Positions 4,302 through 34,255 of a stretch of DNA of 64,000 nt are shown piece after piece (the stretch's first letter is position 1; every line of letters begins with the position of its first letter). Source of the DNA: Rickettsiales bacterium. Its GTDB lineage: Bacteria; Pseudomonadota; Alphaproteobacteria; Rickettsiales; UBA1997. Under the pieces are notes generated by a model that had not been told where the DNA came from, did no database searches, and worked only from the letters and a program-made list of their open reading frames with translations. The translations under genes were made by a program, and so were the position numbers. Location: the NCBI GenBank assembly GCA_017999675.1, contig JAGNLL010000001.1:196472-260471 (forward strand). The letters are read 5' to 3'.

Positions 4302-4422
4302 AACGTGAGCTGGACGGGGTTTGCAACCCCGTCCAAAAGTTCAGTTCCTTTGAGCTAAAGTTTTAATGAACGTGAGGACGGGATTACAAATCCCGTCCTG
4401 CGAAGGTCCTTCAAAGAACTAA
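4302..4422. repeat. Palindromic repeat family C, composite copy (two hairpin units)
   Basis: Unit a is CTGGACGGGGTTTGCAACCCCGTCC(4312-4334)AAAAGTTCAGTTCC. Unit b is ATGAACGTGAGGACGGGATTACAAATCCCGTCC(4376-4398)TGCGAAGGTCC. Related copies are at 4792..4829 and 7510..7645. Confidence 0.85.
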
Positions 4423-4785: not shown

Positions 4786-4791
4786 GAAGCT

Positions 4792-4829
4792 GGACGGGGT
4801 TTGTAACCACGTCCTGCACCCACAGGTCC
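4792..4829. repeat. Palindromic repeat family C, single unit-b-like copy
   Basis: GGACGGGGTTTGTAACCACGTCC (one stem mismatch) followed by TGCACCCACAGGTCC, which parallels TGCGAAGGTCC at 4399-4409. Confidence 0.75.
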
Positions 4830-4836
4830 TACCCCA

Positions 4837-4865
4837 CCGTCATTGCGAGCGAAGCGTGGCAATCC
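4837..4865. repeat. Repeat family D, single arm
   Basis: CCGTCATTGCGAGCGAAGCGTGGCAATCC. The same unit occurs as an inverted pair at 28281..28360. Confidence 0.8.
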
Positions 4866-4877
4866 AGAAAACCCTCC

Positions 4878-6164: not shown

Positions 6165-6260
6165 ACCGTTGGTTGAGCGGAGTCGAAACCACCGGAAGGT
6201 TCTTGCTTCAATCGTGAGGCAGGAACCTTCCGTTGGTTTCGACTCCGCTCAACCGACGGT
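6165..6260. repeat. Palindromic repeat family A, copy 2 (96 nt), intergenic
   Basis: ACCGTTGGTTGAGCGGAGTCGAAACCACCGGAAGGTTC ... GAACCTTCCGTTGGTTTCGACTCCGCTCAACCGACGGT, lying between waaA and the UbiH-family gene. Confidence 0.9.
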
Positions 6261-7509: not shown

Positions 7510-7645
7510 TAGCGCTGGACGGGGTTTGTAACCCCGTCCGAAACGTTCAGTTCCAAAATCTTCTAAACCACTTGAGACATGAACGGGTGGACGGGGTTAC
7601 AAACCCCGTCCAGCAGAAGGTTTGTAACCCCGTCCACACGTTCAC
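7510..7645. repeat. Palindromic repeat family C, cluster of three hairpin units
   Basis: GGACGGGGTTTGTAACCCCGTCC (7517-7539) plus GAAACGTTCAGTTCC; then ATGAACGGGTGGACGGGGTTACAAACCCCGTCC (to 7611) plus AGCAGAAGG; then TTTGTAACCCCGTCCACACGTTCA (to 7644). Confidence 0.85.
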
Positions 7646-7651
7646 TAAAAG

Positions 7652-9202
7652 CTAAATCATGTTTTTTGGGTTAACCCATTCCTCAAATTGCGCTTCGGTT
7701 AAAAGGCCTGAAGCCAGTGCTGCCGCTTTTAGAGTGGTACCTTCCTTGTGCGCTTTTTTGGCAATTTTTGCAGCTGAGTCGTAGCCAATGTAGGGGTTAA
7801 GTGCGGTGACAAGCATTAGAGATTGGTCGAGAAGTTGCGTAATACGCTCGCGATTTGCCTCAATTCCGACCAAGCATTGGTCAACAAAACTGTTAATTCC
7901 GTCGTTTAACAAATTGAGCGATTCAATGACGTTGCGAATAATCATTGGGCGAAAAACGTTGAGTTCAAAATGTCCGTTCGAGCCGCCAATCGTTACAGCA
8001 ACGTGGTTTCCCATTACTTGGCAAGCAATCATTGTTAGCGCTTCACACTGCGTTGGGTTAACTTTACCCGGCATTATTGAAGAGCCTGGTTCGTTTTCAG
8101 GTAAGCTGATTTCACCCAAACCCGAACGTGGGCCCGAAGCCAAAAAGCGAATGTCGTTGGCAATTTTCATTACTGAAGTTGCGAGTGAATTTAGTGAGCC
8201 AGAAAAATTCACTAGCTCGTCGTTACAAGCCAAAGCGAAGAATTTATTTTTGTTGGTGTAGAAGCTGTCAGCGTGGTCTAATCCCAGTTTAGCAAGGTTT
8301 GAATCTTTTACCTTCCACACACCATCTGCCAAAGTGGTGCGACCTAAATCTAAATTTAAAACTTTTTGGTGTAGTGCTTTTAGACCAGAAACTTCGGTGA
8401 TTTTTTCAGCAAAATTCACTGCAAATTTTGGGTGACAATTAAGCCCAGTTCCAACTGCAGTGCCGCCTTGAGCCAAATGGACCACGTAAGAAAGCGACTG
8501 AGAAATAAACACTGCCGCTGTTTGAATTTGCACTTTGTAGGCTGAAAATTCTTGGCCCAAAGTCACTGGTGTTGCGTCTTGGGTGTGGGTGCGACCGATT
8601 TTAATAATGTCTAAAAACTCGGCTTCCTTTTTACCTAACTCATTGGCAAAGCGCACCAAAGTTGGTAGCAATTTCTCGTAAGTTGTAAGAACAGCTGCCA
8701 CGTGCATTGCGGTTGGGAAAGTGTCGTTTGAACTTTGTCCCAAATTTACGTGGTCGTTTGGATGCACCGGAGATTTTCCACCTTTTTGTCCAGTCACTTT
8801 TTCATTGGCAACTGAAGCAATTACCTCGTTGGTATTCATGTTGGTTTGAGTACCAGAGCCGGTTTGCCAAACTACGAGAGGAAAATGATTTTCGTAAAAC
8901 CAATCGAATTTGGCGAGGATTGTGTCAACCGCGTCAACAATTTTGTCGGCTAAATCGGGAGAGAATTTTTTGAACTCGTCAGATTTTGGATCAGCTGCCA
9001 TTAAGTCTTTGTTGGTAAGAGCCGCCGCTTTTTTGATTAGCAACATTGCGCGCACAACTTCTTTTGGCATTTTGTGGCCAGGGTTGTCGTTGCAGATTGG
9101 AAAGTTTTGTACAGAGCGCTGTGTTTGCGCGGCGTAGTAGGCGTCAAAAGGCACTTGAATTTCGCCGAAAGAGTCAGATTCAATACGAAAGTTTTTTGTC
9201 AT
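7652..9202 (-). CDS. fumC: Class II fumarate hydratase with lineage-specific insertions
   Basis: 516 aa. Motifs: [41 protein letters not shown], and a C-terminus [29 protein letters not shown] close to E. coli FumC. About 40 extra residues sit between ..ITEVSGLK and NKNKFFAL. Confidence 0.93.
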
Positions 9203-9236
9203 TTTTTTAAGGTTGGTTAAAGGTTAAAAAATTTAA

Positions 9237-9339
9237 TAGGTCCCCGAGCAAAGGCCGCAGGCCGTCGTCGAGGGGCCGGAACACGAGATCTGTCTTCGGG
9301 CCCCTCGACGACGGCCTGCGGCCTTTGCTCGGGGACCTA
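9237..9339. repeat. Palindromic repeat family E, copy 1 (103 nt)
   Basis: TAGGTCCCCGAGCAAAGGCCGCAGGCCGTCGTCGAGGGGCC ... GGCCCCTCGACGACGGCCTGCGGCCTTTGCTCGGGGACCTA. The second copy is at 20923..21024. Confidence 0.9.
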
Positions 9340-9350
9340 TTTAGGACTTC

Positions 9351-10193
9351 TTAAGAAACGCAGATTTTTACAAACTCCTCAACATCCAAGCTGGCCTTGC
9401 CCACAAGCAATCCATCAACCCCGTCAATTGCGAGAATTTCTTGCGAATTTTGTGACGTCACCGAGCCACCGTAAAGCATGAAATATTCTTTGGCGCGCCC
9501 TGCAAACTTTTCGGTGAAAACTTTTTTAAACAAATGTGCCATTTCGGCAATCTGCGTGGTTGTTGGTGTCACACCGGTTCCAATCGACCAAATTGGTTCG
9601 TAGGCAATTACCATTTTTTCAAATTGCGCGCTTGTTGAAATTGAATTCATTAGCTGCTTGTAAACAAATTCTAAATGTTTGCCGGAATCGCGAACTTCTT
9701 TACTTTCGCCCACACAAATAATTGGCGTAATTTTTTGCGCCAAGGCGGCGTCAACTTTTTTAGCTACAATTTCGTTAGTTTCTAAAAATTGCTCACGGCG
9801 CTCGCAGTGGCCTAAAATAACGTATCCACAGCTTACCGCGGCCAACATTTCAGCACTGACGCTTCCGGTAAAAGAGCCCGAATTTTCAAAATGACAATCT
9901 TGCGCACCAAGTTTTATTGGACGCTCTTTTAATAAAATTTCGTTGAGCTCTTCTGGGCTAAATTCTGAAAAATCTCGACCATCTTCTTTCATTAAAAATT
10001 CTAACTTTTCAAAGCCGTCACCCATTAGCTCGCTGTCAATGTAGTCGAGCATTAAGAATGACGGGCACAGCACCATTTCAACATCTTTTAGCTGTTCGTA
10101 TTTTTCAGAGTAATTTTGAAAAAACCCGTCAAGCCAAGCGTCCGTTTCGTCAAAGGCGTGGTTCATTTTCCAGTTTGCTGCGATGATTTTCAT
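9351..10193 (-). CDS. tpiA: Triosephosphate isomerase (with a ~30-aa insertion)
   Basis: 280 aa. Motifs: ANWKMN, ILGHCERR, AYEPIWSIGTG, YGGSV. Confidence 0.9.
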   Translation of the reverse strand: MKIIAANWKMNHAFDETDAWLDGFFQNYSEKYEQLKDVEMVLCPSFLMLDYIDSELMGDGFEKLEFLMKEDGRDFSEFSPEELNEILLKERPIKLGAQDCHFENSGSFTGSVSAEMLAAVSCGYVILGHCERREQFLETNEIVAKKVDAALAQKITPIICVGESKEVRDSGKHLEFVYKQLMNSISTSAQFEKMVIAYEPIWSIGTGVTPTTTQIAEMAHLFKKVFTEKFAGRAKEYFMLYGGSVTSQNSQEILAIDGVDGLLVGKASLDVEEFVKICVS

Positions 10194-12031: not shown

Positions 12032-15000
12032 TTAGCGTAACTGAGCAATCCACATTCTCGACACCTTCTCCGCCAAAGAATTTTGCTCACAGCGATTGTG
12101 TAAATGCGCAAAATCAAAGCGATCCATGTTTTGATCTTGGTCGCCGCAAGAATAAAAATATTCCTCCTCACCTTTTTCATTTTGTCTTTTTTGCAAACAT
12201 TGCGAACACACGCCTTTCAACATGCATTGCATTGGAGCGTTGAGGCTGGCGGTTGCAACTGGGGCTTTAGAAATTGATTCGACTAAATTTTCAGCGCGCA
12301 ATTTTGCCACCGCGTGCATCATTTGGTCGTTGCCAATTGTAAAAATGCGGTCGATTTTTTCAGGGTTTTTTGTGAAGTGATTTTTTAAAGCCTCAATCAC
12401 TGAGCCTTCAAAACAGTAGTTTGAGGCTTTCTCAAATTTCAAATTCGGCAATTCTTCTTCAATTGCACAAACCAAAATTTCACAAGAATTTTCCATTCTT
12501 TGTTGCCTAACAATTGACGAATTTTTGCGATATCCCGCAAAAAAAATCACGCGGCAACCGTTTTGTTTGTAAGCCTCAGCCAGTGCAGTTAAAGGCTGAT
12601 TACCGCGCCCTCCCCCAATTAAAACCACAGTTTCATTTTGTGGAATTTCATTTGGCTTGCCACTTGGGCCCATGAAAATGCAGGGTTCGCCCGTTTTAAA
12701 ATTTTGAATCAAACTTGTTGAGCCACCAGTTTCAAGAACAATACCACTAATAATTCCGCGCTCGCAATCAATTGACAAAGCCGTGACGGGAACACCTTCC
12801 ATTGCTAACAATTGGTCGCCAACTTTTGGCGCCAATGCGTGATAATTTTGCAGTCGAAAAATTTGACCAACGTGAGTTTGTTTTGCCAAAAGTGGGGCCT
12901 TGATGAAAACCTCAACCACGTGGTCTGAAAGCCTGTCGATTTTTTCGATTTTGACTAAAAATTCAGAATTTATTTTTTTCAAAAACTCAAAAACCAAAAC
13001 CGTCGGTTGAGCGGAGTCGAAACCACCGGAAGGTTCCTGCTGTGAAAGTTCTGAATCAGGAACCTTCCGTTGGTTTCGACTCCGCTCAACCGACGGTTTT
13101 GGGGGTGACGGTTCTGTTTCTGACGGTTTTTGTGAGGCAAGTAATCTGCTAATCTGTGAATAACCCATCTTCGCACTGGCCATTGCCTTCACCACATTAC
13201 CTTCAAAACTTGGATGCAAATCGCCAAAAAAACTCACCACTTTTTGCGAGTTTTCGTCAATTTTTGTAATCACACTTCCCTGCTCAAGTGCTTTAAAATA
13301 TTTGCCCTCAAGCTTGAAATCTAGCCCATCTTCAAGCACTGGCGCAATGTTTGGAGTGGTGCCTGCCGCAACTAAAAGTGATTTGCAGGCAAAGTTTTTT
13401 CCTTCAGCGCATTTCAAATTTTTAATGTAGCCAAATTGGTCGGTTTCAACTTCGAGTGGCGTAATATTTTCAACAAATTCTACACCTTCTGCGAAAGCTT
13501 TGCTCAGCTCTTGGTGGTTTAATCTGTAAGCTGGAGAGTCTTGAATTTTTTTGCGGTAGAGAATTTTTACGCCACCCCATTTTTTTAATAACTCGCTAGA
13601 GTCACCATTACGTAGCTCTGCGGCGTGATTCAAAAATTCTTCAGCAATAATTTTTTCTTCTGCATTTAACGCCGCCCAAATTTTTTCTTTACCAATTGCC
13701 GCAAATTTTTTTTCAAATTTTCTGATTTGGGTAATGTAATAAGCCTGCGCTTCGCAAGCGGTGTCTGTTGCCGTAAGCCCTCCGCCAATCACCGCAATTG
13801 GCATTCTGATTTGCAAATTGGTGAATAATTCTTCTTTAAAAGCTCCAGTTAATTGTAGCGACATTAAAAAATCTGAAGCCGAACGCACACCTTTAGCAAA
13901 GTTATTTTTCAGATTAATAATATTAGGCCGACCCGCGCCAATACAAAGCGCAACATGGTCGAATCCGTAATTTTCAAAAGCAATTTTGTCGGTAATTGAC
14001 GAGCCAAAACGAATGCCACCAAACATTCTAAAATTTTCTCTGCGCTCTAAAAGTAGGCGAATCACTTTCAAAAAATTCTTGTCGAAACGCACCGTAATGC
14101 CATATTCCGCAACGCCGCCAAAACCATGAACCAAGCGTCTTGAGAGTGGCTCGTAAATTTCGTCTAAAAATTTAATTGGTTTAAATTTTTGGCGATTTCC
14201 AAATTCGTCAATGCCAGAAATTTGCGAATTTAGCGGCTCAATTTTAAGCCCATCAATTGCCACAATCGTGTGACCGTCATTTAACAAATGATGCGCTAGA
14301 GTGTAGCCGGCAGGTCCCAAACCAGCGATTAGAATTTTTTTGCCGGAATTTTCTTTAGGCAAATTTCTCTCCAAATTCAGTGGATTCCAACGCGTTAAAA
14401 GTGAGTAAATTTCAAAGCCAAAAGGCAGCGCCAAAACATCTTTTAGGGTGCGCGTTTCAATTTGTGGAATATCCACCGCGTCTTGTTTTTGGTAAATGCA
14501 CGACTTCATGCAATCGTTGCAAATGCGGTGTCCAGTGCCTGCAATCATTGGGTTGTCAATCACTGCCATTGCAAAAGCGGCGAGCGAAAAACCTTCTGAT
14601 TTTAGCAAATTCATTTCAGAAATTTTTTCATCCAATGGGCAGCCGTGAAGCTCAACTTTAAGTGGATCGATTTTGAATTTTTGAGTTTCTTTGTCGCGAA
14701 TTCCGCTGCGGCAAGAATCTTTTTCCTGCTTGTGACAAAAAATACAGTAATGGGTTTCAGCCAATACCCTGTTGAGCTCGAAGCCTTTGTCGGTTAAGTT
14801 AAAGCCGTCGCGTTTTGATTTTTCAGTGCATGGAGAAATCAAATTTTGGTGGTCGATTTTTTGCGGCAAAATAAAAAGCGCGCCGTTTTTGTGCAAAGCC
14901 CGACCCTTGTCAGAGTAAAGCGCCCAAGTTGTGTAGTTGGTTAAAATTTCTAAATTTTCTTGAGTAGAAATTTTTTCAGCTAGTTGTTTTTCTAGATCGT

Positions 15001-15412
15001 CAACGTCTTCGAAAGTTATTTTTAGATCTTTAAGAACCTTGATCCCATCAGTGCCTGCGACCACATCGCTAAATTTTTTCGAGACATCGCGCTGCACAAA
15101 TTCACGACGAATTTGGTAAATTTTTTGCAGCTCGTCGTGACGTTTTTTTAAGTTAGAATTTTCTTGTTCGATGTTGAAAAGCTCAGCAAGAAATTCTTCA
15201 AGAACCCTTGCTACGTCTATTAGAATTTGCGATTTCTGTACCGCAGTTTTGGTATTAGAATTTTTTAAATCACCAAACTGCGCCGCAATTTCTGGAGATT
15301 TTTCTTCTAAATATTTTTCAAATTTTTGATCTAATTTCACCAAACCTTCACGCGCGTAAAGATCTTCAAAAGTTAGTTCAAACCTAGAGTTAAGAGGATT
15401 TTGTGAGGGCAT
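12032..15412 (-). CDS. Large multidomain Fe-S flavoprotein oxidoreductase (Cys-rich N-terminal region + GltD-like NAD(P)H/FAD domains + PyrK/FNR-like domain with C-terminal 2Fe-2S-type cysteines)
   Basis: 1126 aa. Cys clusters CIFCHKQEKDSC, GCPLDEKISE and CNDCMKSC. Two Rossmann motifs (ILIAGLGPAGYTLA; VIGGGLTATDTA). C-terminal FNR-like barrel and NAD domain (VVLIGGGRGNQP), ending in CMLKGVCSQC...YFYSCGDQD. A family A palindromic element lies in frame at the domain junction. Confidence 0.6.
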   Translation of the reverse strand: MPSQNPLNSRFELTFEDLYAREGLVKLDQKFEKYLEEKSPEIAAQFGDLKNSNTKTAVQKSQILIDVARVLEEFLAELFNIEQENSNLKKRHDELQKIYQIRREFVQRDVSKKFSDVVAGTDGIKVLKDLKITFEDVDDLEKQLAEKISTQENLEILTNYTTWALYSDKGRALHKNGALFILPQKIDHQNLISPCTEKSKRDGFNLTDKGFELNRVLAETHYCIFCHKQEKDSCRSGIRDKETQKFKIDPLKVELHGCPLDEKISEMNLLKSEGFSLAAFAMAVIDNPMIAGTGHRICNDCMKSCIYQKQDAVDIPQIETRTLKDVLALPFGFEIYSLLTRWNPLNLERNLPKENSGKKILIAGLGPAGYTLAHHLLNDGHTIVAIDGLKIEPLNSQISGIDEFGNRQKFKPIKFLDEIYEPLSRRLVHGFGGVAEYGITVRFDKNFLKVIRLLLERRENFRMFGGIRFGSSITDKIAFENYGFDHVALCIGAGRPNIINLKNNFAKGVRSASDFLMSLQLTGAFKEELFTNLQIRMPIAVIGGGLTATDTACEAQAYYITQIRKFEKKFAAIGKEKIWAALNAEEKIIAEEFLNHAAELRNGDSSELLKKWGGVKILYRKKIQDSPAYRLNHQELSKAFAEGVEFVENITPLEVETDQFGYIKNLKCAEGKNFACKSLLVAAGTTPNIAPVLEDGLDFKLEGKYFKALEQGSVITKIDENSQKVVSFFGDLHPSFEGNVVKAMASAKMGYSQISRLLASQKPSETEPSPPKPSVERSRNQRKVPDSELSQQEPSGGFDSAQPTVLVFEFLKKINSEFLVKIEKIDRLSDHVVEVFIKAPLLAKQTHVGQIFRLQNYHALAPKVGDQLLAMEGVPVTALSIDCERGIISGIVLETGGSTSLIQNFKTGEPCIFMGPSGKPNEIPQNETVVLIGGGRGNQPLTALAEAYKQNGCRVIFFAGYRKNSSIVRQQRMENSCEILVCAIEEELPNLKFEKASNYCFEGSVIEALKNHFTKNPEKIDRIFTIGNDQMMHAVAKLRAENLVESISKAPVATASLNAPMQCMLKGVCSQCLQKRQNEKGEEEYFYSCGDQDQNMDRFDFAHLHNRCEQNSLAEKVSRMWIAQLR
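12999..13097. repeat. Palindromic repeat family A, copy 3 (99 nt), inside the oxidoreductase gene and in frame
   Basis: ACCGTCGGTTGAGCGGAGTCGAAACCACCGGAAGGTTCCTGC ... CAGGAACCTTCCGTTGGTTTCGACTCCGCTCAACCGACGGT. Confidence 0.9.
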
Positions 15413-18176: not shown

Positions 18177-18686
18177 TTAGCTAGGATTGTCGTTTCTGTT
18201 TTTACGGAAAGCATCAATCGAAATGACTTTTGCCGACAAATCAACGTTGGAGGCGTTTTTTTCTGCCGATAAATTTTTATTGGCCTGATTTGGATCAGTT
18301 AAATCACCATTTTCTAAATCTTCTAAATCGCTGTAAGTCATGCTAAATTTTAGCGCAAAATTCATTGACGGGTCAGCAAAAGAAGTGATTGCTTTGTAAG
18401 GGATTAAAAGCTTTTCGTATTTGCCGTTAAAGCTTAGAGAAATTTTAAAATTATCCTGCTCAACCGCCAAAGACTTATATTGATGCTGCACGGCGATGGT
18501 CATTTCTTCGCTAAATTTTTCGAGCAGAGATTTTGGAATTGAAACCCCTGGAAAGCGCGTCATGAAAGTGATCATGAAATAATGTTTGCCGGGTAAGCCA
18601 GTTTTTTCGATTTTTTTGAGAGTTTCGTAAATCACCGAACGCATTGAGGTTTCGATGATATCATCATATCCAATTAAGTCTTGCAT
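18177..18686 (-). CDS. sspB: ClpXP adaptor SspB (alphaproteobacterial SspB-alpha type)
   Basis: The core LPGKHYFMITFMTRFPGVSIPKSLLEKFSEEMTIAVQHQY...ISLSFNGKYEKLLIPYKAITSFADPSMNFALKF parallels Caulobacter SspB-alpha (LPGEHHFFITF...MTIVLQHQF...LSFN...IPF.A...F.DP...FAL.F). I prefer ATG 18686 (MQDLIGYDD). The track start 18761 would run through the tmRNA 3' hairpin. Confidence 0.75.
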   Translation of the reverse strand: MQDLIGYDDIIETSMRSVIYETLKKIEKTGLPGKHYFMITFMTRFPGVSIPKSLLEKFSEEMTIAVQHQYKSLAVEQDNFKISLSFNGKYEKLLIPYKAITSFADPSMNFALKFSMTYSDLEDLENGDLTDPNQANKNLSAEKNASNVDLSAKVISIDAFRKNRNDNPS

Positions 18687-18704
18687 GAGGAATTTTGTTA
18701 AATG

Positions 18705-19185
18705 CGAGAAAGTGCCCGAGTTTCTGTTGACAGGCACTCGGGCGGGCCCCGATAAAATCACTTATACTAAGCAGCTAAAGCCACTGGAGCAAATTCGAAG
18801 TTATCATTAGCAAAGTTGTCGTTTGCATTTACTTTTTTGAACGGATGTCGCTTGGCTTTCGCCTCACAACCGGCAGTTTCTCAACCGGGTAAAATCAAAT
18901 CCTTTATCGCATGTCGAAAGCTGTGTCACCCCCAGAAGAAAAATCACTTTTGTTCGGGTAGAAAATTCAAGTATTTTGAGTGATAGCTTTGCTAAATGAA
19001 AAGTTCGAGGAGGGCCGCGTATTCCAATACGCAACCGACGAGAATCTTTTCATTTAGTGAAGCTAGCGCTCAAAAGACGCCGAATTTGGTGGAGGTGCTG
19101 GGTACTGCCCCCAGGTCCATGTACGTTTATTGCGAAGAGAGTTTATCACCATAGTCTTTTAGTCTTGCGACCGAAAGCGTGGCGT
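18705..19185 (-). ncRNA. ssrA: Circularly permuted (two-piece) tmRNA gene: acceptor piece (about 19185 to 19087), intervening hairpin (19086 to 18934), coding piece (18933 to about 18705)
   Basis: Reading the minus strand: ...GGACCUGGGGGCAGUACCCAGCACCUCCACCA ends at 19087 (T-arm-like hairpin, acceptor 3' strand CACCUCC, discriminator A, CCA). The segment from 18933 starts GGGGGUGACACAGCUUUCGACAUGCG, giving the complementary acceptor 5' strand GGGGGUG with a G3:U70 wobble plus the UUUCGACA motif. It is followed by the tag frame GCA AAC GAC AAC UUU GCU AAU GAU AAC UUC GAA UUU GCU CCA GUG GCU UUA GCU GCU UAG (ANDNFANDNFEFAPVALAA, 18826..18767) and a terminal hairpin GCCCGAGU/ACUCGGGC. The 5' and 3' boundaries are approximate. 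Confidence 0.8.
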
Positions 19186-19213
19186 AACCTAAGAACTAAA
19201 AAAATTTTGACAA
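19186..19213 (-). promoter_or_regulatory. Candidate sigma-70-like promoter for ssrA
   Basis: On the minus strand: TTGTCA (19213-19208), a 16-nt spacer, then TAGGTT (19191-19186). The -10 is weak and the call rests on position only. Confidence 0.25.
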
Positions 19214-19309
19214 GTAATGGTTAGGAAAAATCTTTAGAAATTAAAATTTCACTTCCTAGAGTGCGCCGAAATTCTTCGTTTAAAAATCCCCAAAAATCTC
19301 AAGTCAAAA

Positions 19310-20914
19310 ATGTCTGCCATCAACCTATCTTCCTGCGAATCAAATCCTACTAACCGCAAAAAAGTTGTAATACTTGGATCGGGCCCAAACCGCATCGGGC
19401 AAGGCATTGAGTTTGACTACACCTGCGTTCACGCCGCCTTCGCTTTCAAAGCTCATGGCATTGAAGCCATCATGGTTAACTGCAATCCAGAAACAGTTTC
19501 AACTGATTACGACACTTCAGATCGCCTTTATTTTGAACCACTCACCGCTGAAGACACCATCGAACTAATCAAAAAAGAAATGAGCAACGGCGAATTGCTT
19601 GGTGTAAACGTGCAGTTCGGCGGCCAAACACCTCTAAGCCTCGCCAAGTTTTTGCAAGACGAAAATATTCCAATCATCGGCACTTCGCCCGACATGATCG
19701 ACTTGGCTGAAGATCGCGATCGCTTCAAAAAACTTTTGCAAAAACTCGAATTAAACCAACCACAAAACTACATCGCTTACTCAGCAAAACAGGTTTTGGA
19801 TCAAGTAAGTGAAGTTGGTTTTCCGGTTGTAGTTCGCCCATCTTACGTTCTAGGTGGACGCGGCATGGCGATTGTTTACGACGAAGCTTATTTAATGAAA
19901 TATTTGGTTGAATATGCCGATGTTTTTGAAACCGGCCCTCTCCTTCTCGACAAGTTTTTAACTGATGCAATTGAAGTTGACGTTGACGCTTTATGCGACG
20001 GCGAAGAAGTTTTTGTCGCCGGAATTATGCAGCACATCGAAGAAGCCGGCATTCACTCAGGCGACTCAGCCTGTTCACTTCCGCCTTTTTCTTTGTCAGA
20101 AAAAATGATCGAAGAAGTGAAAAAAGCGACGGTGAAAATGGCTTTAGCACTCAACGTAAAAGGCTTAATGAATGTGCAATATGCCATTCAAAATGAAAAA
20201 CTTTTTGTGTTAGAAGTTAACCCGCGCGCCTCACGCACCGTGCCTTTTGTGGCTAAGGCAACCGGCATTCCAATTGCTAAAATTGCCTCGCTAATAATGG
20301 TCGGCAAAAAACTTTCTGAGTTCAAATTGCAGGAAAAAAAGTTAGAATATTTCTCTGTCAAAGAAGTTGTTTTCCCTTTCGCGCGCTTCTCAAACACCGA
20401 CACAATTTTGGGGCCAGAAATGAAATCTACTGGCGAAGTAATGGGCATCGACACCACCTTCCCTCTGGCATTTGCCAAAGCGCAAATGGCTGCTGGCGTT
20501 AAACTTTTAACTGAAGGTTTGGTTTTTGTTTCGGTGAAAGATTCTGACAAAAAACATTTACCCGACCTCGCCCGCAAATTAGTAACAATCGGCTTCAAAA
20601 TTGTTGCAACGCGCGGCACCGCTAAATTCTTAGCTGAAAACGACATTCCGGTGACCATCGTAAATAAAATTACCGAAGACCGCCCACACGTTGTCGACAT
20701 GATCGACCGCAAAGAAATTGCTTTAGTAATTAACACAACCGAAGGCGCGCAAGCAACTAAAGACAGCTTCTCAATTCGCAGAACTTCTTTAATGCGCGGC
20801 GTTAACTACACCACCACAATGTCTGGTGCGAAAGCTTTGGTTGATGCGCTTGAGGCTTACAAAAATCAGGGCTGTAAGTTTGAAGTGAGAGCTTTGCAGG
20901 ATTTGCAGAGTTAA
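19310..20914 (+). CDS. carB: Carbamoyl-phosphate synthase large subunit, C-terminal half only (second ATP-grasp unit + MGS-like allosteric domain)
   Basis: The 534-aa ORF aligns by eye with the second half of E. coli CarB ([100 protein letters not shown]). No N-terminal half is adjacent. Confidence 0.85.
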
Positions 20915-20922
20915 CCATTTTA

Positions 20923-21024
20923 TAGGTCCCCGAGCAAAGGACGAAGTCCGTCGTCGAGGGGCCCGAAGCGAGATCTGTCTTCGGGCCCCTCGACGACGGA
21001 CTTCGTCCTTTGCTCGGGGACCTA
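20923..21024. repeat. Palindromic repeat family E, copy 2 (102 nt)
   Basis: TAGGTCCCCGAGCAAAGGACGAAGTCCGTCGTCGAGGGGCCCGAAG CGAGATCTGT CTTCGGGCCCCTCGACGACGGACTTCGTCCTTTGCTCGGGGACCTA. This is a nearly perfect 46-bp stem. Confidence 0.9.
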
Positions 21025-21040
21025 TTTATATTTATTTTTA

Positions 21041-21310
21041 ATGACATCACCACACACCATATTTTACATCAAGGTCACACCAAATTCCTCGCAAACAAAA
21101 ATCAGCGGAAAATTTCTCGACGAGAAAAATCAAGAATACATCAAAATCAATCTAGCAGCAGTTCCAGAGGATAACAAAGCCAATGAAGAATTAATAAAAT
21201 TTTTGGCAAAAACCTTAAAAATTTCCAAATCAAAAATCGAAATCATCCGCGGCGAAACCTCGCGAATAAAAGTGGTAAAAGTTGAAGGAGACATCGTTAA
21301 CCCTCTTTGA
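21041..21310 (+). CDS. DUF167 (YggU/UPF0235) family protein
   Basis: 89 aa. The pattern V.PNS....I.G.......IKI.L.A.P.DNKAN.ELI.FLAK.L....S.I.I..G.TSR.K is typical of YggU-like proteins. Confidence 0.7.
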   Translation: MTSPHTIFYIKVTPNSSQTKISGKFLDEKNQEYIKINLAAVPEDNKANEELIKFLAKTLKISKSKIEIIRGETSRIKVVKVEGDIVNPL

Positions 21311-28251: not shown

Positions 28252-28280
28252 GTTTTTTACACCGAGTCTTCGTTAGCACT

Positions 28281-28360
28281 GGATTGCCGCGCTGCGCTCG
28301 CAATGACGGCGTGGGAAGGTCACTCCTAGCACCGTCATTGCGAGCGCAGCGTGGCAATCC
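28281..28360. repeat. Repeat family D, inverted pair forming a ~29-bp hairpin
   Basis: GGATTGCCGCGCTGCGCTCGCAATGACGG (28281-28309), a 22-nt loop, then CCGTCATTGCGAGCGCAGCGTGGCAATCC (28332-28360). There is one mismatch. Confidence 0.85.
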
Positions 28361-28388
28361 ATTAACACAATCACACTTTACATTAATC

Positions 28389-28787
28389 ATGCACCTCATC
28401 CTCATCGCAATCGGCGGCGCGCTTGGCTCAGTGACTCGCTACCTGTCATCTGAATTAATTTTACAAATCGTAAAATTTAACAATTCCTCACTCGCAAAAT
28501 TTCCTTGGCCAACTTTTTGCGTAAACGTTCTCGGCTCACTCCTCGCCGGCGCTGCCTACTTCTTCGTCATCAAAAATTTCGACAATTTTGACCCGCGTTT
28601 GAAAAACTTTTTATTTGTCGGATTCCTCGGCGGCTTCACCACCTTCTCCGCTTTCTCGCTTGACTTCTTTCGCCTAGCAACCGCCGGCCAATATTCACAA
28701 GCCTTGCTCTATGCTTTAGCTTCCGTCACAATTTCAATTCTGGCGCTGTTTTTTGGCTTTTATTTATCAAAATTAATTTTCTCTTAA
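28389..28787 (+). CDS. crcB: Fluoride ion channel CrcB/Fluc
   Basis: 132 aa from ATG 28389 (MHLILIAIGGALGSVTRY...), with four TM segments and GFLGGFTTFSAF. The track start 28284 reads through repeat family D. Confidence 0.88.
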   Translation: MHLILIAIGGALGSVTRYLSSELILQIVKFNNSSLAKFPWPTFCVNVLGSLLAGAAYFFVIKNFDNFDPRLKNFLFVGFLGGFTTFSAFSLDFFRLATAGQYSQALLYALASVTISILALFFGFYLSKLIFS

Positions 28788-29893: not shown

Positions 29894-29921
29894 CAGTTGT
29901 TTCACCACATTTGTTTTGAAT

Positions 29922-30197
29922 ATGAAAAACCCTATTTTTAGCTGGAGTGAGGAGAAAAATAAAATTCTCAAAGAGTCTCGAAACATTTCTTTTGAAAAAA
30001 TCATTACCGCGATTCAGGAAGGTGATTTGTTGGAAATTATTGCAAATCCCAGCAAAAATCACGAAGAGCAAGATTGTTTGGTGGTTGGCATTAAAGACTA
30101 CGCTTACATAGTTCCCTACGTTGAAAATGAAGAAGGGATTTTTTTAAAAACAATTTATCCGAGCAGAAAATATACGAGATTTTTACTTAAAAAATGA
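29922..30197 (+). CDS. BrnT-like (DUF497-related) toxin candidate
   Basis: 91 aa from ATG 29922. FSWSEEKNKILKESRNISFEKIITAI ... IVPYVENEEGIFLKTIYPSRKYT fits the F.WDE.KN......RGISFE / IFLKT.IPSRK pattern of small toxins that pair with CopG-type antitoxins. Confidence 0.5.
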   Translation: MKNPIFSWSEEKNKILKESRNISFEKIITAIQEGDLLEIIANPSKNHEEQDCLVVGIKDYAYIVPYVENEEGIFLKTIYPSRKYTRFLLKK

Positions 30198-30209
30198 CGA
30201 GCCCGATTT

Positions 30210-30500
30210 ATGAAAAACGATAAAAAAATTTACAGCGCAGCCGAGTTAAAATTGTTCAAAAAGATCGAGAGTGGCAAAGGCAAAGCCTTACCAAAAAAAG
30301 ATTTTACCAAAGAAAAAAACAAACTTCAAAAGATGGCCGCCAACACTTTGAAAAGGAAATCGATTAATATTCGAGTAATTGAAAGCGACATCGAAAAGAT
30401 CAAGGCCATAGCGCTAGATGAAGGCATACCTTACCAAACTTTTATTACTTCGATATTGCACAAGGTGGCTACGGGAAAGTTGGCGGGTTATCAAATTTAA
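30210..30500 (+). CDS. BrnA/CopG-family (ribbon-helix-helix) antitoxin candidate
   Basis: 96 aa. The C-terminus KSINIRVIESDIEKIKAIALDEGIPYQTFITSILHKVATGKL matches the I.IR....l..lK..A...GIPYQTLI.SILHKY signature. Confidence 0.6.
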   Translation: MKNDKKIYSAAELKLFKKIESGKGKALPKKDFTKEKNKLQKMAANTLKRKSINIRVIESDIEKIKAIALDEGIPYQTFITSILHKVATGKLAGYQI

Positions 30501-33768: not shown

Positions 33769-34192
33769 TTTTTCTGCTCAATATCGCATCTATTACGAAG
33801 ACACTGACGCTGGTGGCATCGTTTATTACGCTAATTATTTAAAATTTTTCGAACGCGCCCGCACCGATTTTTTGCGCAGCTTAAATATTGTGCAGTCTGA
33901 ATTGATGGCGAAGGAAAATTTGGTTTTTGTGGTGAGAAAATGCGAGGTTGATTATCTTACTCCCGCAAGGATGGATGACCTTGTTGAGGTTTCGGTGGCA
34001 GTGACAAAAATTAATCCGGCGTCGATTACGATGTTTCAAGAGATGAAAAAATCTGATAAAGTTTTGTCGCGTTTAACTGTGCAAATTGCTTGTGTTTGCG
34101 CAAATGGAATTAGACCAGAGAGAATTCCAAATGAACTTGTACAACTGCTCACGATGGACCCCGTCGTTCGACGGGGTGACACCTCACTTTAG
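33758..34192 (+). CDS. ybgC: YbgC-type acyl-CoA thioesterase (4HBT hotdog)
   Basis: From ATG 33758: MSNSFSAQYRIYYEDTDAGGIVYYANYLKFFERAR. The last ~12 codons (MDPVVRRGDTSL) and the stop are supplied by repeat family F. Confidence 0.85.
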   Translation: MSNSFSAQYRIYYEDTDAGGIVYYANYLKFFERARTDFLRSLNIVQSELMAKENLVFVVRKCEVDYLTPARMDDLVEVSVAVTKINPASITMFQEMKKSDKVLSRLTVQIACVCANGIRPERIPNELVQLLTMDPVVRRGDTSL

Positions 34193-34220
34193 TTTGTCAC
34201 CCCGTCGAACGACGGGGTCC
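34156..34220. repeat. Palindromic repeat family F (65 nt, double hairpin)
   Basis: GGACCCCGTCGTTCGACGGGGTGAC, a 15-nt spacer, then GTCACCCCGTCGAACGACGGGGTCC. Each arm is itself a hairpin (CCCCGTCG/CGACGGGG). Confidence 0.85.
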
Positions 34221-34255
34221 AGACTGACTCGTCACATAAACAAAAATTACAAAAA

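Follow-up and report, generated by a model that had tools for sequence, protein, structure and literature searches.

Palindromic repeats in a Rickettsiales-like alphaproteobacterium are probably mobile hairpin units joined in inverted pairs

The window analysed here, a stretch of 64,000 nucleotides (nt) of contig JAGNLL010000001.1 (positions 196,472 to 260,471, forward strand) in the Rickettsiales bacterium assembly GCA_017999675.1, contains two complete palindromic doublets of a repeat family, denoted family E, which are located in the spacer of tpiA and fumC (W1) and between the gene for the C-terminal half of CarB and a DUF167 gene (W2). These doublets are probably copies of a non-autonomous mobile repeat that, in this freshwater/wastewater Rickettsiales-like alphaproteobacterium, is composed of hairpin units in inverted pairs resembling repetitive extragenic palindromic (REP) elements. 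W1 and W2 are homotypic doublets that carry two pre-existing alleles of a short variable block; the repeat is probably ordinary selfish DNA with a structural twist. The family was sampled by a scan of species-representative genomes, in which the element is present in three metagenome-assembled genomes (MAGs) of Alphaproteobacteria/Rickettsiales, and by a scan of metagenomes, in which it is present in 48 contigs, many breaking off at the repeat; most of the statistics given below come from these related populations, the individual loci of which are referred to by L-numbers.

The two palindromes of the original prediction are present where it had placed them (Table 1), and the three differences between their left arms are indeed mirrored exactly in the right arms. 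W1 and W2 have in common TAGGTCCCCGAGCAAAGG...TCGTCGAGGGGCC and its complement. The left-block alleles, CCGCAGGCCG in W1 and ACGAAGTCCG in W2, are three positions apart, and the right-arm blocks, CGGCCTGCGG and CGGACTTCGT, respectively, are their exact complements. The window contains four occurrences of the terminal 18-mer (0.02 expected), all within W1 and W2 and on both strands, and also four of the inner 14-mer GTCGTCGAGGGGCC (0.10 expected). The copies fold into hairpins of approximately 41-46 base pairs (bp), with calculated energies of about -105 kcal/mol as RNA and about -65 kcal/mol as DNA (z-scores of about -15 to -17), and W2 is an inverted repeat with 52-nt arms, 0 nt between them and 96% complementarity. 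Both copies had been thought to retain perfect pairing, which is accurate for the blocks but not for the apical stem, where three further differences that the prediction had not listed (9278 G/C, 9282 C/G and 9283 A/gap) are uncompensated and leave two mismatches in W1, so that the palindromes are near-perfect.

The variable block is a local palindrome by itself, a point that had also been missed. When extended to the left by one base, it reads GGCC-GCA-GGCC in W1 and GGAC-GAA-GTCC in W2, with a stem of 4 bp around a loop of three bases. Parsing of the arms as GGTCCCCGAGCAAA, block and GTCGTCGAGGGG yielded 76 non-redundant arms with 17 block types, and the block is self-complementary in 74 of these arms. 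The resulting mini-hairpins have stems of 2-5 bp, nearly always closed by a C:G pair and capped by a G-N-A loop (88% of the arms: GTA in 27, GCA in 26 and GAA in 14); a few loops are GTAA or TTTA. The most common stem is GC (51 arms), followed by GGCC (8) and GGAC/GTCC (5), and GCGC, GGC/GCC and GACC/GGTC are found as well; two stems include a G-T wobble. Among the discrete alleles are GC-GNA-GC, GGCC-GNA-GGCC, GGAC-GAA-GTCC, GACC-GTA-GGTC and GCGC-GTA-GCGC, and a further variant, GCAC-GCA-GTGC, was detected in run X4 among contigs of the runs that hold the window genome. The W2 allele, GGACGAAGTCC, is also present in L003, L005 and L030, and the W1 allele, GGCCGCAGGCC, in a solo arm of L040, indicating that neither arose in the window copies. 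Of the three block differences, two (C to A and G to T, from W1 to W2) fall on bases that pair with each other inside one arm, and the third is the middle base of the G-N-A loop; they appear mirrored because each copy has one allele in both arms. The three compensatory double substitutions that had been proposed are thus not independent events but the outcome of two block alleles that existed beforehand, one in both arms of W1 and the other in both arms of W2. In runs X1-X4, the changes 9254 G>C and 9262 C>G, which form a stem pair, occur in equal numbers of contigs in each run. The sequencing depth in run X1 is 230-570 over the element compared to 7-11 on its flanks, which would correspond to tens of copies per genome; the window holds two in 64 kb, both intergenic.

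Three alternative pairings were compared in an alignment of 20 full elements, in which the left outer segment is invariant or almost so. Pairing of the left block with the right block is observed in 78.1% of the cells, with 7 of the 20 sequences unpaired at informative columns, whereas the corresponding figure for the within-arm mini-hairpins is 99.1%, with 19 double-sided changes. The within-arm covariation score is 0.241 compared to 0.051 in shuffles, and collapses once the partners are slid. In the two long stems formed between the arms, outer and inner, 96.6% of the cells are paired with 0 compensated changes, and all variant cells (19/19) are uncompensated and break or weaken the pairing. 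Pairing selection between the arms of the long helix is not detectable. Selection on the hairpin, one of the two explanations offered originally, accordingly finds support in the structure-keeping variation of the within-arm mini-hairpins but not in the long inter-arm helix. The same prediction had named uncompensated changes in other genomic copies as the outcome that would speak against it, and this is largely what the collected copies display between the arms; the covariation within the arms is genuine.

The two blocks of a doublet are unlike (heterotypic) in 11 of the 18 strict doublets. Blocks of different length are combined in L004, L012, L014, L037 and L054, and a loop base is the sole difference between the arms in L038 and L042. 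The heterotypic element of L003 folds into a four-way junction formed by the outer stem, the left mini-hairpin, the inner stem and the right mini-hairpin. In L003 and L005, which the alignment shows to be orthologous only to each other, the flanks are 94-95% identical, while none of approximately 90 arm positions differs and the apical loop has 4 differences; this excess of arm over flank identity indicates that the arm sequences are kept. W1 and the element of L004, with flanks that are 77-85% identical, differ chiefly in the blocks and the loop. The conservation of the arms could be caused by selection for mobility, or by turnover or conversion from the family pool. L003 and L005 were also considered as orthologues of W1, given their similar upstream spacers, and were rejected because they adjoin a different gene, the lipoyl-domain-like product of which starts with MTIEIKVPALGES.

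The second explanation offered originally, that the mirrored differences were made in place, one arm being copied onto the other (mutational rather than selective compensation, by intramolecular template switching or by the repair of mismatches within a fold-back or a cruciform), is unlikely, although some of the data conform to it. In particular, 7 of the 18 doublets are homotypic, more than the 3.1 expected (P ~0.01), W1 and W2 are both homotypic for rare alleles, and W2 is palindromic through its centre, as a DNA-level inverted duplication would give. However, both alleles pre-exist in other genomes, so that they did not originate in W1 or W2; most doublets are still heterotypic, and single-base loop differences persist (in L046 in addition to the two loci mentioned above); and the three apical differences between W1 and W2 have not been corrected. 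The homotypic excess itself may reflect young age or population structure.

The building unit of the family is the arm, of 37-41 nt, with the structure (TA)GGTCCCC-GAGC-AAA-[mini-hairpin]-GTC-GTCGA-GGGG. The doublets, of which 18-20 were found, consist of two inverted arms around a short apical hairpin. Approximately 10 arms are solo, with sharp ends, (T)YA/GGTCCCC...GAGGGG/, where the slashes mark the boundaries (for example, in L007, L009, L019, L024, L028, L032, L033 and L040). Arms are joined tail-to-tail in L019, the apical hairpin lacks a second arm in L011, L023, L034, L036 and L051, and L037 and L048 contain chimeras in which an E-type arm is joined to another arm type. A 66-nt sister family (L019, L046 and L054) has arms of the form GGTCCCCGAGC-GGA-GTCGAGGGGCC, in which a GGA loop replaces the nested hairpin, and three other palindrome families of the window contain strong hairpins inside their arms (z-scores of -2.1 to -6.0). 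Together, the solo arms, chimeras, sister-family arms and internal hairpins point to a common architecture of hairpin units in inverted pairs.

Two other repeats of the window were observed. A palindrome family of approximately 110 nt, with arms AACCGTCGGTTGAGCGGAGTCGAAACCACCGGAAGGTTCC, is represented at 1118-1249, 6165-6260 and 12994-13102; its arms have the core GAGC-GGA-GTCGA in common with the 66-nt sister family and a closing stem GGTT/AACC, not CCCC/GGGG. Two of its three copies are in frame within open reading frames (ORFs), namely an M24 peptidase gene (509-2317), the Pfam domain of which is stretched by approximately 45 amino acids (aa), and an RP005_N/Pyr_redox_2 gene (12032-15412) that encodes 1126 aa, with orthologues of 1073-1128 aa. 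The repeat CACCGTCATTGCGAGCG(A/C)AGCGTGGCAATCCA is found at two sites, 4835-4866 and 28279-28361; at the second it is paired in inverse orientation and overlaps a CrcB-like ORF (28284-28787) at its start.

Comparison with related loci indicates that the elements move. W2 is absent from L057 (CarB half 96% identical at the aa level), L058 (93%) and L059 (91% for the CarB half), and in the latter two loci the carB stop codon overlaps the DUF167 start codon (TAATG). W2 is thus a recent insertion, and one that parts two translationally coupled genes, which would hardly be expected of an element with a conserved function in regulation. The W1 spacer contains a heterotypic family-E element (GGCC-GTAA-GGCC and GC-GAA-GC) in L004, a syntenic Rickettsiales MAG, is empty in L061 (25 nt), and in L062 (10865-10963) and L063 houses another palindrome family, GACCCCGTCATTCGACGGGGTGACA..., that is also present in the window at 34153-34223. 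The occupation of the short tpiA-fumC spacer by different families indicates a repeated landing site. Over 8 kb of synteny with L004, four of the five window palindromes are window-specific (4309-4402, 4789-4867, 6165-6260 and 7514-7615, all of families other than E), and L004 has short AT-rich spacers in their place. No family-E arm was found in approximately 135 kb from relatives, and the palindrome load ranges from 0 to 6 per relative locus of 12-22 kb (0 in L059 and L061, 6 in L062).

With regard to the target, TTAA is found on either side of each window insertion, 0-13 nt away, and deletion from TTAA to TTAA restores the empty-site sequence for W1 (compared to L061) and for W2 (the TAATG overlap). 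A TTAA target with AT-rich tails of 8-13 nt is suggested, though not established, by these two reconstructions. An A precedes nearly every arm, with TA at about 70% and CA at about 17% of the ends, and some elements have unlike ends (L010 and L013). No consistent conserved flanking motif or extended inverted flank was found around the elements; in L053 (862-1002), the 25 nt behind the element exactly reverse-complement the 25 nt ahead of it, which is almost certainly an assembler fold-back artefact at the palindrome, and such contigs are unsuited to the study of flanks. A one-sided likeness of flanks was observed, with (TTTA)GGACTTCTT in W1 (9340-9350), GGACTTTTTTT in L003 and TGACTTTTTT in L005, the W1 locus being unrelated to the other two; a short tail on one side may therefore be part of what moves.

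These flanks also bear on the possibility that family E is a classical miniature inverted-repeat transposable element (MITE) moved by a TA-duplicating DDE transposase of the IS630/Tc1-mariner type, the palindrome being its long terminal inverted repeats (TIRs), which we consider rather improbable. The A or TA before the arms, the common TTA...TAA flanks and the restoration of both empty sites by TTAA-to-TTAA removal would be expected of such an element, whereas the CA ends and the unequal ends within one element would not, and TA, itself palindromic, may belong to the repeat. Furthermore, the chimeric doublets and the sharp inner ends of the solo arms are more in keeping with unit-wise assembly than with TIR-to-TIR transposition, and no insertion sequence (IS) with TAGGTCCCC termini was found in the window or in L003-L063, where TAGGTCC...GGACCTA bounds only short elements.

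For the REP-like mobile repeat that we favour, the following scenario can be proposed. The element would move as folded single-stranded DNA, through the action of a hairpin-recognising HUH/RAYT or IS200/IS605-type enzyme encoded elsewhere in the genome, and would insert into TA/TTAA of short AT-rich spacers just past stop codons. New doublets would be born symmetric, which would account for the full homotypy of the young W2 and for the surplus of homotypic doublets; the arms would later mutate and diverge or be exchanged. The RNA hairpin formed upon co-transcription would be a by-product.

To our knowledge, the d(GCGNAGC) mini-hairpin has not been described previously as a component of any family of genomic repeats. 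The dominant family-E blocks, GCGTAGC, GCGCAGC and GCGAAGC, match this motif exactly, and in the longer block alleles, too, the stem is closed by C:G and the loop starts with G and ends with A; the likeness to d(GCGNAGC)/d(GCGNNAGC) (Hirao and co-workers; PMC13037366) is one of sequence only. Mini-hairpins of both kinds have an extraordinary stability in DNA form that is greatly reduced in RNA, and the d(GCGNAGC) motif is known to occur in the single-strand origins of phages and plasmids and in promoters of phage N4 (PMC13037366). The GNA blocks, the continuity of the W2 palindrome through its centre and the common plus-strand orientation of W1 and W2, which are nevertheless transcribed in opposite directions, are indirect indications that the structure might act as single-stranded DNA. 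It is conceivable, but quite improbable, that the G-N-A mini-hairpins are the functional heart of the element, such that the folded single-stranded four-way junction would present its two exceptionally stable, SSB-resistant mini-hairpins as recognition or priming signals to an enzyme such as a structure-specific recombinase, an HUH nuclease or one with primase-like activity, with the alleles swapped between arms as cassettes, in a REPIN-like system that lacks a RAYT in a reduced Rickettsiales-type genome.

That the long hairpin is instead a functional RNA (a terminator or attenuator, a stabiliser of mRNA 3' ends or an RNase III site), with selection on the inter-arm helix and true compensation, is very improbable, because the location of both copies between co-directional genes, 8-11 nt past a stop codon, the stability of the RNA fold and the conservation of the arms above that of the flanks are outweighed by the lack of compensated changes in the long stems, the non-complementary blocks in 11 of 18 doublets, the recent arrival of W2 between genes that overlap in relatives, the W1 site that is empty or holds another family in relatives, the opposite transcription of the two copies, the nature of GNA triloops as a DNA-stability motif, and the lack of a U-tract, a terminator call or an Rfam family at threshold. 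Specifically, the terminator scan called neither W1 nor W2, the tails of which (CTATTTAT... and TATTAAATTT...) contain no U-tract; at the Rfam gathering threshold only the transfer-messenger RNA (tmRNA) passes in the window, and in e-value mode the element retrieved only sub-threshold look-alikes of eukaryotic miRNA hairpins. None of the RNA runs holds the locus, and the three RNA runs of the same study, of only 8-9 million letters, gave 0.00 shared words. The plasmid and phage collections contain no match to the element.

Among known systems, the bacterial interspersed mosaic elements (BIMEs), in which Y and Z units combine as mosaics, are akin to the mixed arm types of family E. More generally, the REP/BIME elements of enterobacteria and the REPINs of Pseudomonas resemble family E in that the unit is a short imperfect palindrome (37-41 nt in the family-E arm), that units are found mainly as inverted doublets around a spacer, forming a long hairpin, and also as singlets, and that there are tens of extragenic copies, a number which for a family-E genome is an estimate from depth. 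Compensatory-looking changes across the hairpin are a further shared trait; for REPIN hairpins, compensatory changes have been reported to be common (Bertels & Rainey 2011, PMC3116915). Unlike in these systems, the family-E unit nests a GNA-capped mini-hairpin with swappable alleles, and the host is a small-genome Rickettsiales-like alphaproteobacterium.

The Rickettsia palindromic elements (RPE) are reportedly palindromic repeats of 100-150 nt that comprise several families with a patchy distribution among relatives. Family E resembles them in size, in the multiplicity of families, in the Rickettsiales-type genome and in patchy presence, and the AACCGTCGGTTGAGCGGAGTCGAAACCACCGGAAGGTTCC family resembles them in its in-frame copies inside genes, whereas W1 and W2 are intergenic and not in-frame and the host is not Rickettsia; the likeness to RPE is by description only. 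The Correia/NEMIS elements of Neisseria and the RUP elements of S. pneumoniae are MITEs of approximately 100 nt that have defined TIRs, duplicate TA and can be traced to an IS family. They are similar to family E in length, inverted-repeat ends, TA at both ends, sites between co-transcribed genes and long RNA hairpins, and differ in these properties, TA duplication being at most putative for family E, and in that the family-E arms act as independent hairpin units.

Several points weigh against the interpretation of family E as a REP-like mobile repeat. First, in contrast to REP/REPIN units, family E lacks the conserved 5' GTAG: the arm starts with (TA)GGTCCCC, and GTAG is found only within the GCGTAGC allele, being GCAG or GAAG in other alleles. 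Second, no transposase was found: the Pfam analysis detected no Y1/HUH domain in the 27 window ORFs scanned, and a phmmer search with E. coli RayT produced no match in the 919 ORF fragments of the window and all loci, so that a RAYT, typical of REPINs and there usually flanked by the repeats, was found in neither set. Third, TTAA/TA target duplication is ambiguous in the AT-rich, diverged spacers of the L061 and L058/L059 comparisons. Fourth, the window genome itself supplies only two copies, the statistics being mostly those of its relatives. Fifth, a closing CCCC/GGGG stem within the arm is suggestive only. Double-compensated changes in L009 (AT/AT) and L037 (GT/AC) keep the same-arm CCCC/GGGG paired but break the opposite-arm pairing; these two covarying arms (4 cells) stand against 3 broken ones, and the stem is weak by nearest-neighbour energies, with z-scores of about -0.1 to -1.75 for solo arms. 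Finally, the points that separate DNA-level from RNA-level structure are all indirect.

Pfam gene calls bear out the location of both copies between co-directional genes (Table 1), as had been noted originally, and co-transcription with the neighbouring genes is plausible judging by position: W1 is 11 nt past the tpiA stop codon and 34 nt ahead of the fumC start codon, and W2 is 8 nt past the stop codon of the carB half and 16 nt ahead of the DUF167 start codon. A motif TTAACCTTTAACCAAC(C)TTAAAAAAATG was observed directly before start codons, upstream of fumC (9203-9236) and in L003, L004, L061 and L062, at both unrelated and orthologous genes, where a Shine-Dalgarno sequence would be expected, and is possibly a leader or promoter element peculiar to the lineage. 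The FumC protein of the window (516 aa) contains a 35-aa in-frame insertion (8273-8377, minus strand) that is absent from the 481-aa orthologues of L061 and L062. The corresponding DNA is non-palindromic (z -0.2) but contains TTTAGGTCGCACCAC, which resembles the element termini, and may be a decayed element insertion.

Table 1. Positions of the two family-E doublets, their segments and the adjacent genes in the window
Feature	Coordinates	Strand	Remarks
W1, complete family-E palindromic doublet	9237..9339		103 nt; spacer of tpiA and fumC
W1 left outer segment TAGGTCCCCGAGCAAA	9237..9252	+	pairs with 9324-9339
W1 left mini-hairpin GGCC-GCA-GGCC	9253..9263	+	4-bp stem, GNA triloop; holds the variable block noted originally
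W1 left inner segment GTCGTCGAGGGGCC	9264..9277	+	
W1 apical region GGAACACGAGATCTGTCTTCG	9278..9298		centre AGATCT; site of the three uncompensated W1/W2 differences
W1 right inner segment, complement of GTCGTCGAGGGGCC	9299..9312	-	
W1 right mini-hairpin, plus strand GGCC-TGC-GGCC	9313..9323	-	allele as in left arm
W1 right outer segment TTTGCTCGGGGACCTA	9324..9339	-	
W2, complete family-E palindromic doublet	20923..21024		102 nt; between carB C-terminal half and DUF167 gene
W2 left mini-hairpin GGAC-GAA-GTCC	20939..20949	+	
W2 apical region CGAAGCGAGATCTGTCTTCG	20964..20983		palindrome continuous across centre AGA/TCT
W2 right mini-hairpin, plus strand GGAC-TTC-GTCC	20998..21008	-	allele as in left arm
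fumC	7652..9202	-	Pfam Lyase_1 and FumaraseC_C; downstream neighbour of W1
tpiA	9351..10193	-	Pfam TIM, 5e-77; upstream neighbour of W1
carB C-terminal half	19310..20914	+	Pfam CPSase_L_D1, CPSase_L_D2 and MGS; upstream of W2
DUF167 (YggU) gene	21041..21310	+	Pfam DUF167, 8e-26; downstream neighbour of W2

The window has a G+C content of approximately 41%, encodes a permuted alphaproteobacterial tmRNA and is syntenic with L004, a contig of a MAG labelled Rickettsiales bacterium, at 75-87% nucleotide identity. It is 100% identical over 10.6 kb to a contig of an NCBI metagenome assembly and is present in four wastewater metagenome runs. Hundreds of relatives of CarB and TpiA with 60-96% identity come from freshwater and wastewater assemblies, indicating that the lineage is widespread and uncultured. 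The tmRNA (18676-19227, minus strand; tag peptide ANDNFANDNFEFAPVALAA) overlaps by coordinates the end of an SspB-like ORF (18177-18761) and contains a 53-nt imperfect inverted repeat (18971-19078). Two putative toxin-antitoxin-like pairs were also identified, one at 2360-2620 with the adjacent gene (DUF4160 beside a gene called DUF2442 in L064) and the other at 29916-30500 (BrnT-like/CopG-like, with scores below the Pfam cut-offs).

In family E, mirrored substitutions that resemble textbook covariation result from modular hairpin alleles in symmetric doublets. More broadly, the data reveal that an uncultured Rickettsiales-like lineage, widespread in freshwater and wastewater, has an active system of palindromic repeats made up of several families. 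While the confirmed observation has an ordinary explanation, the mini-hairpin module alone merits follow-up: the GCGNAGC mini-hairpin, known from single-strand origins, is here the conserved core of a genomic repeat, and provides a concrete handle on whether such repeats act as single-stranded DNA.

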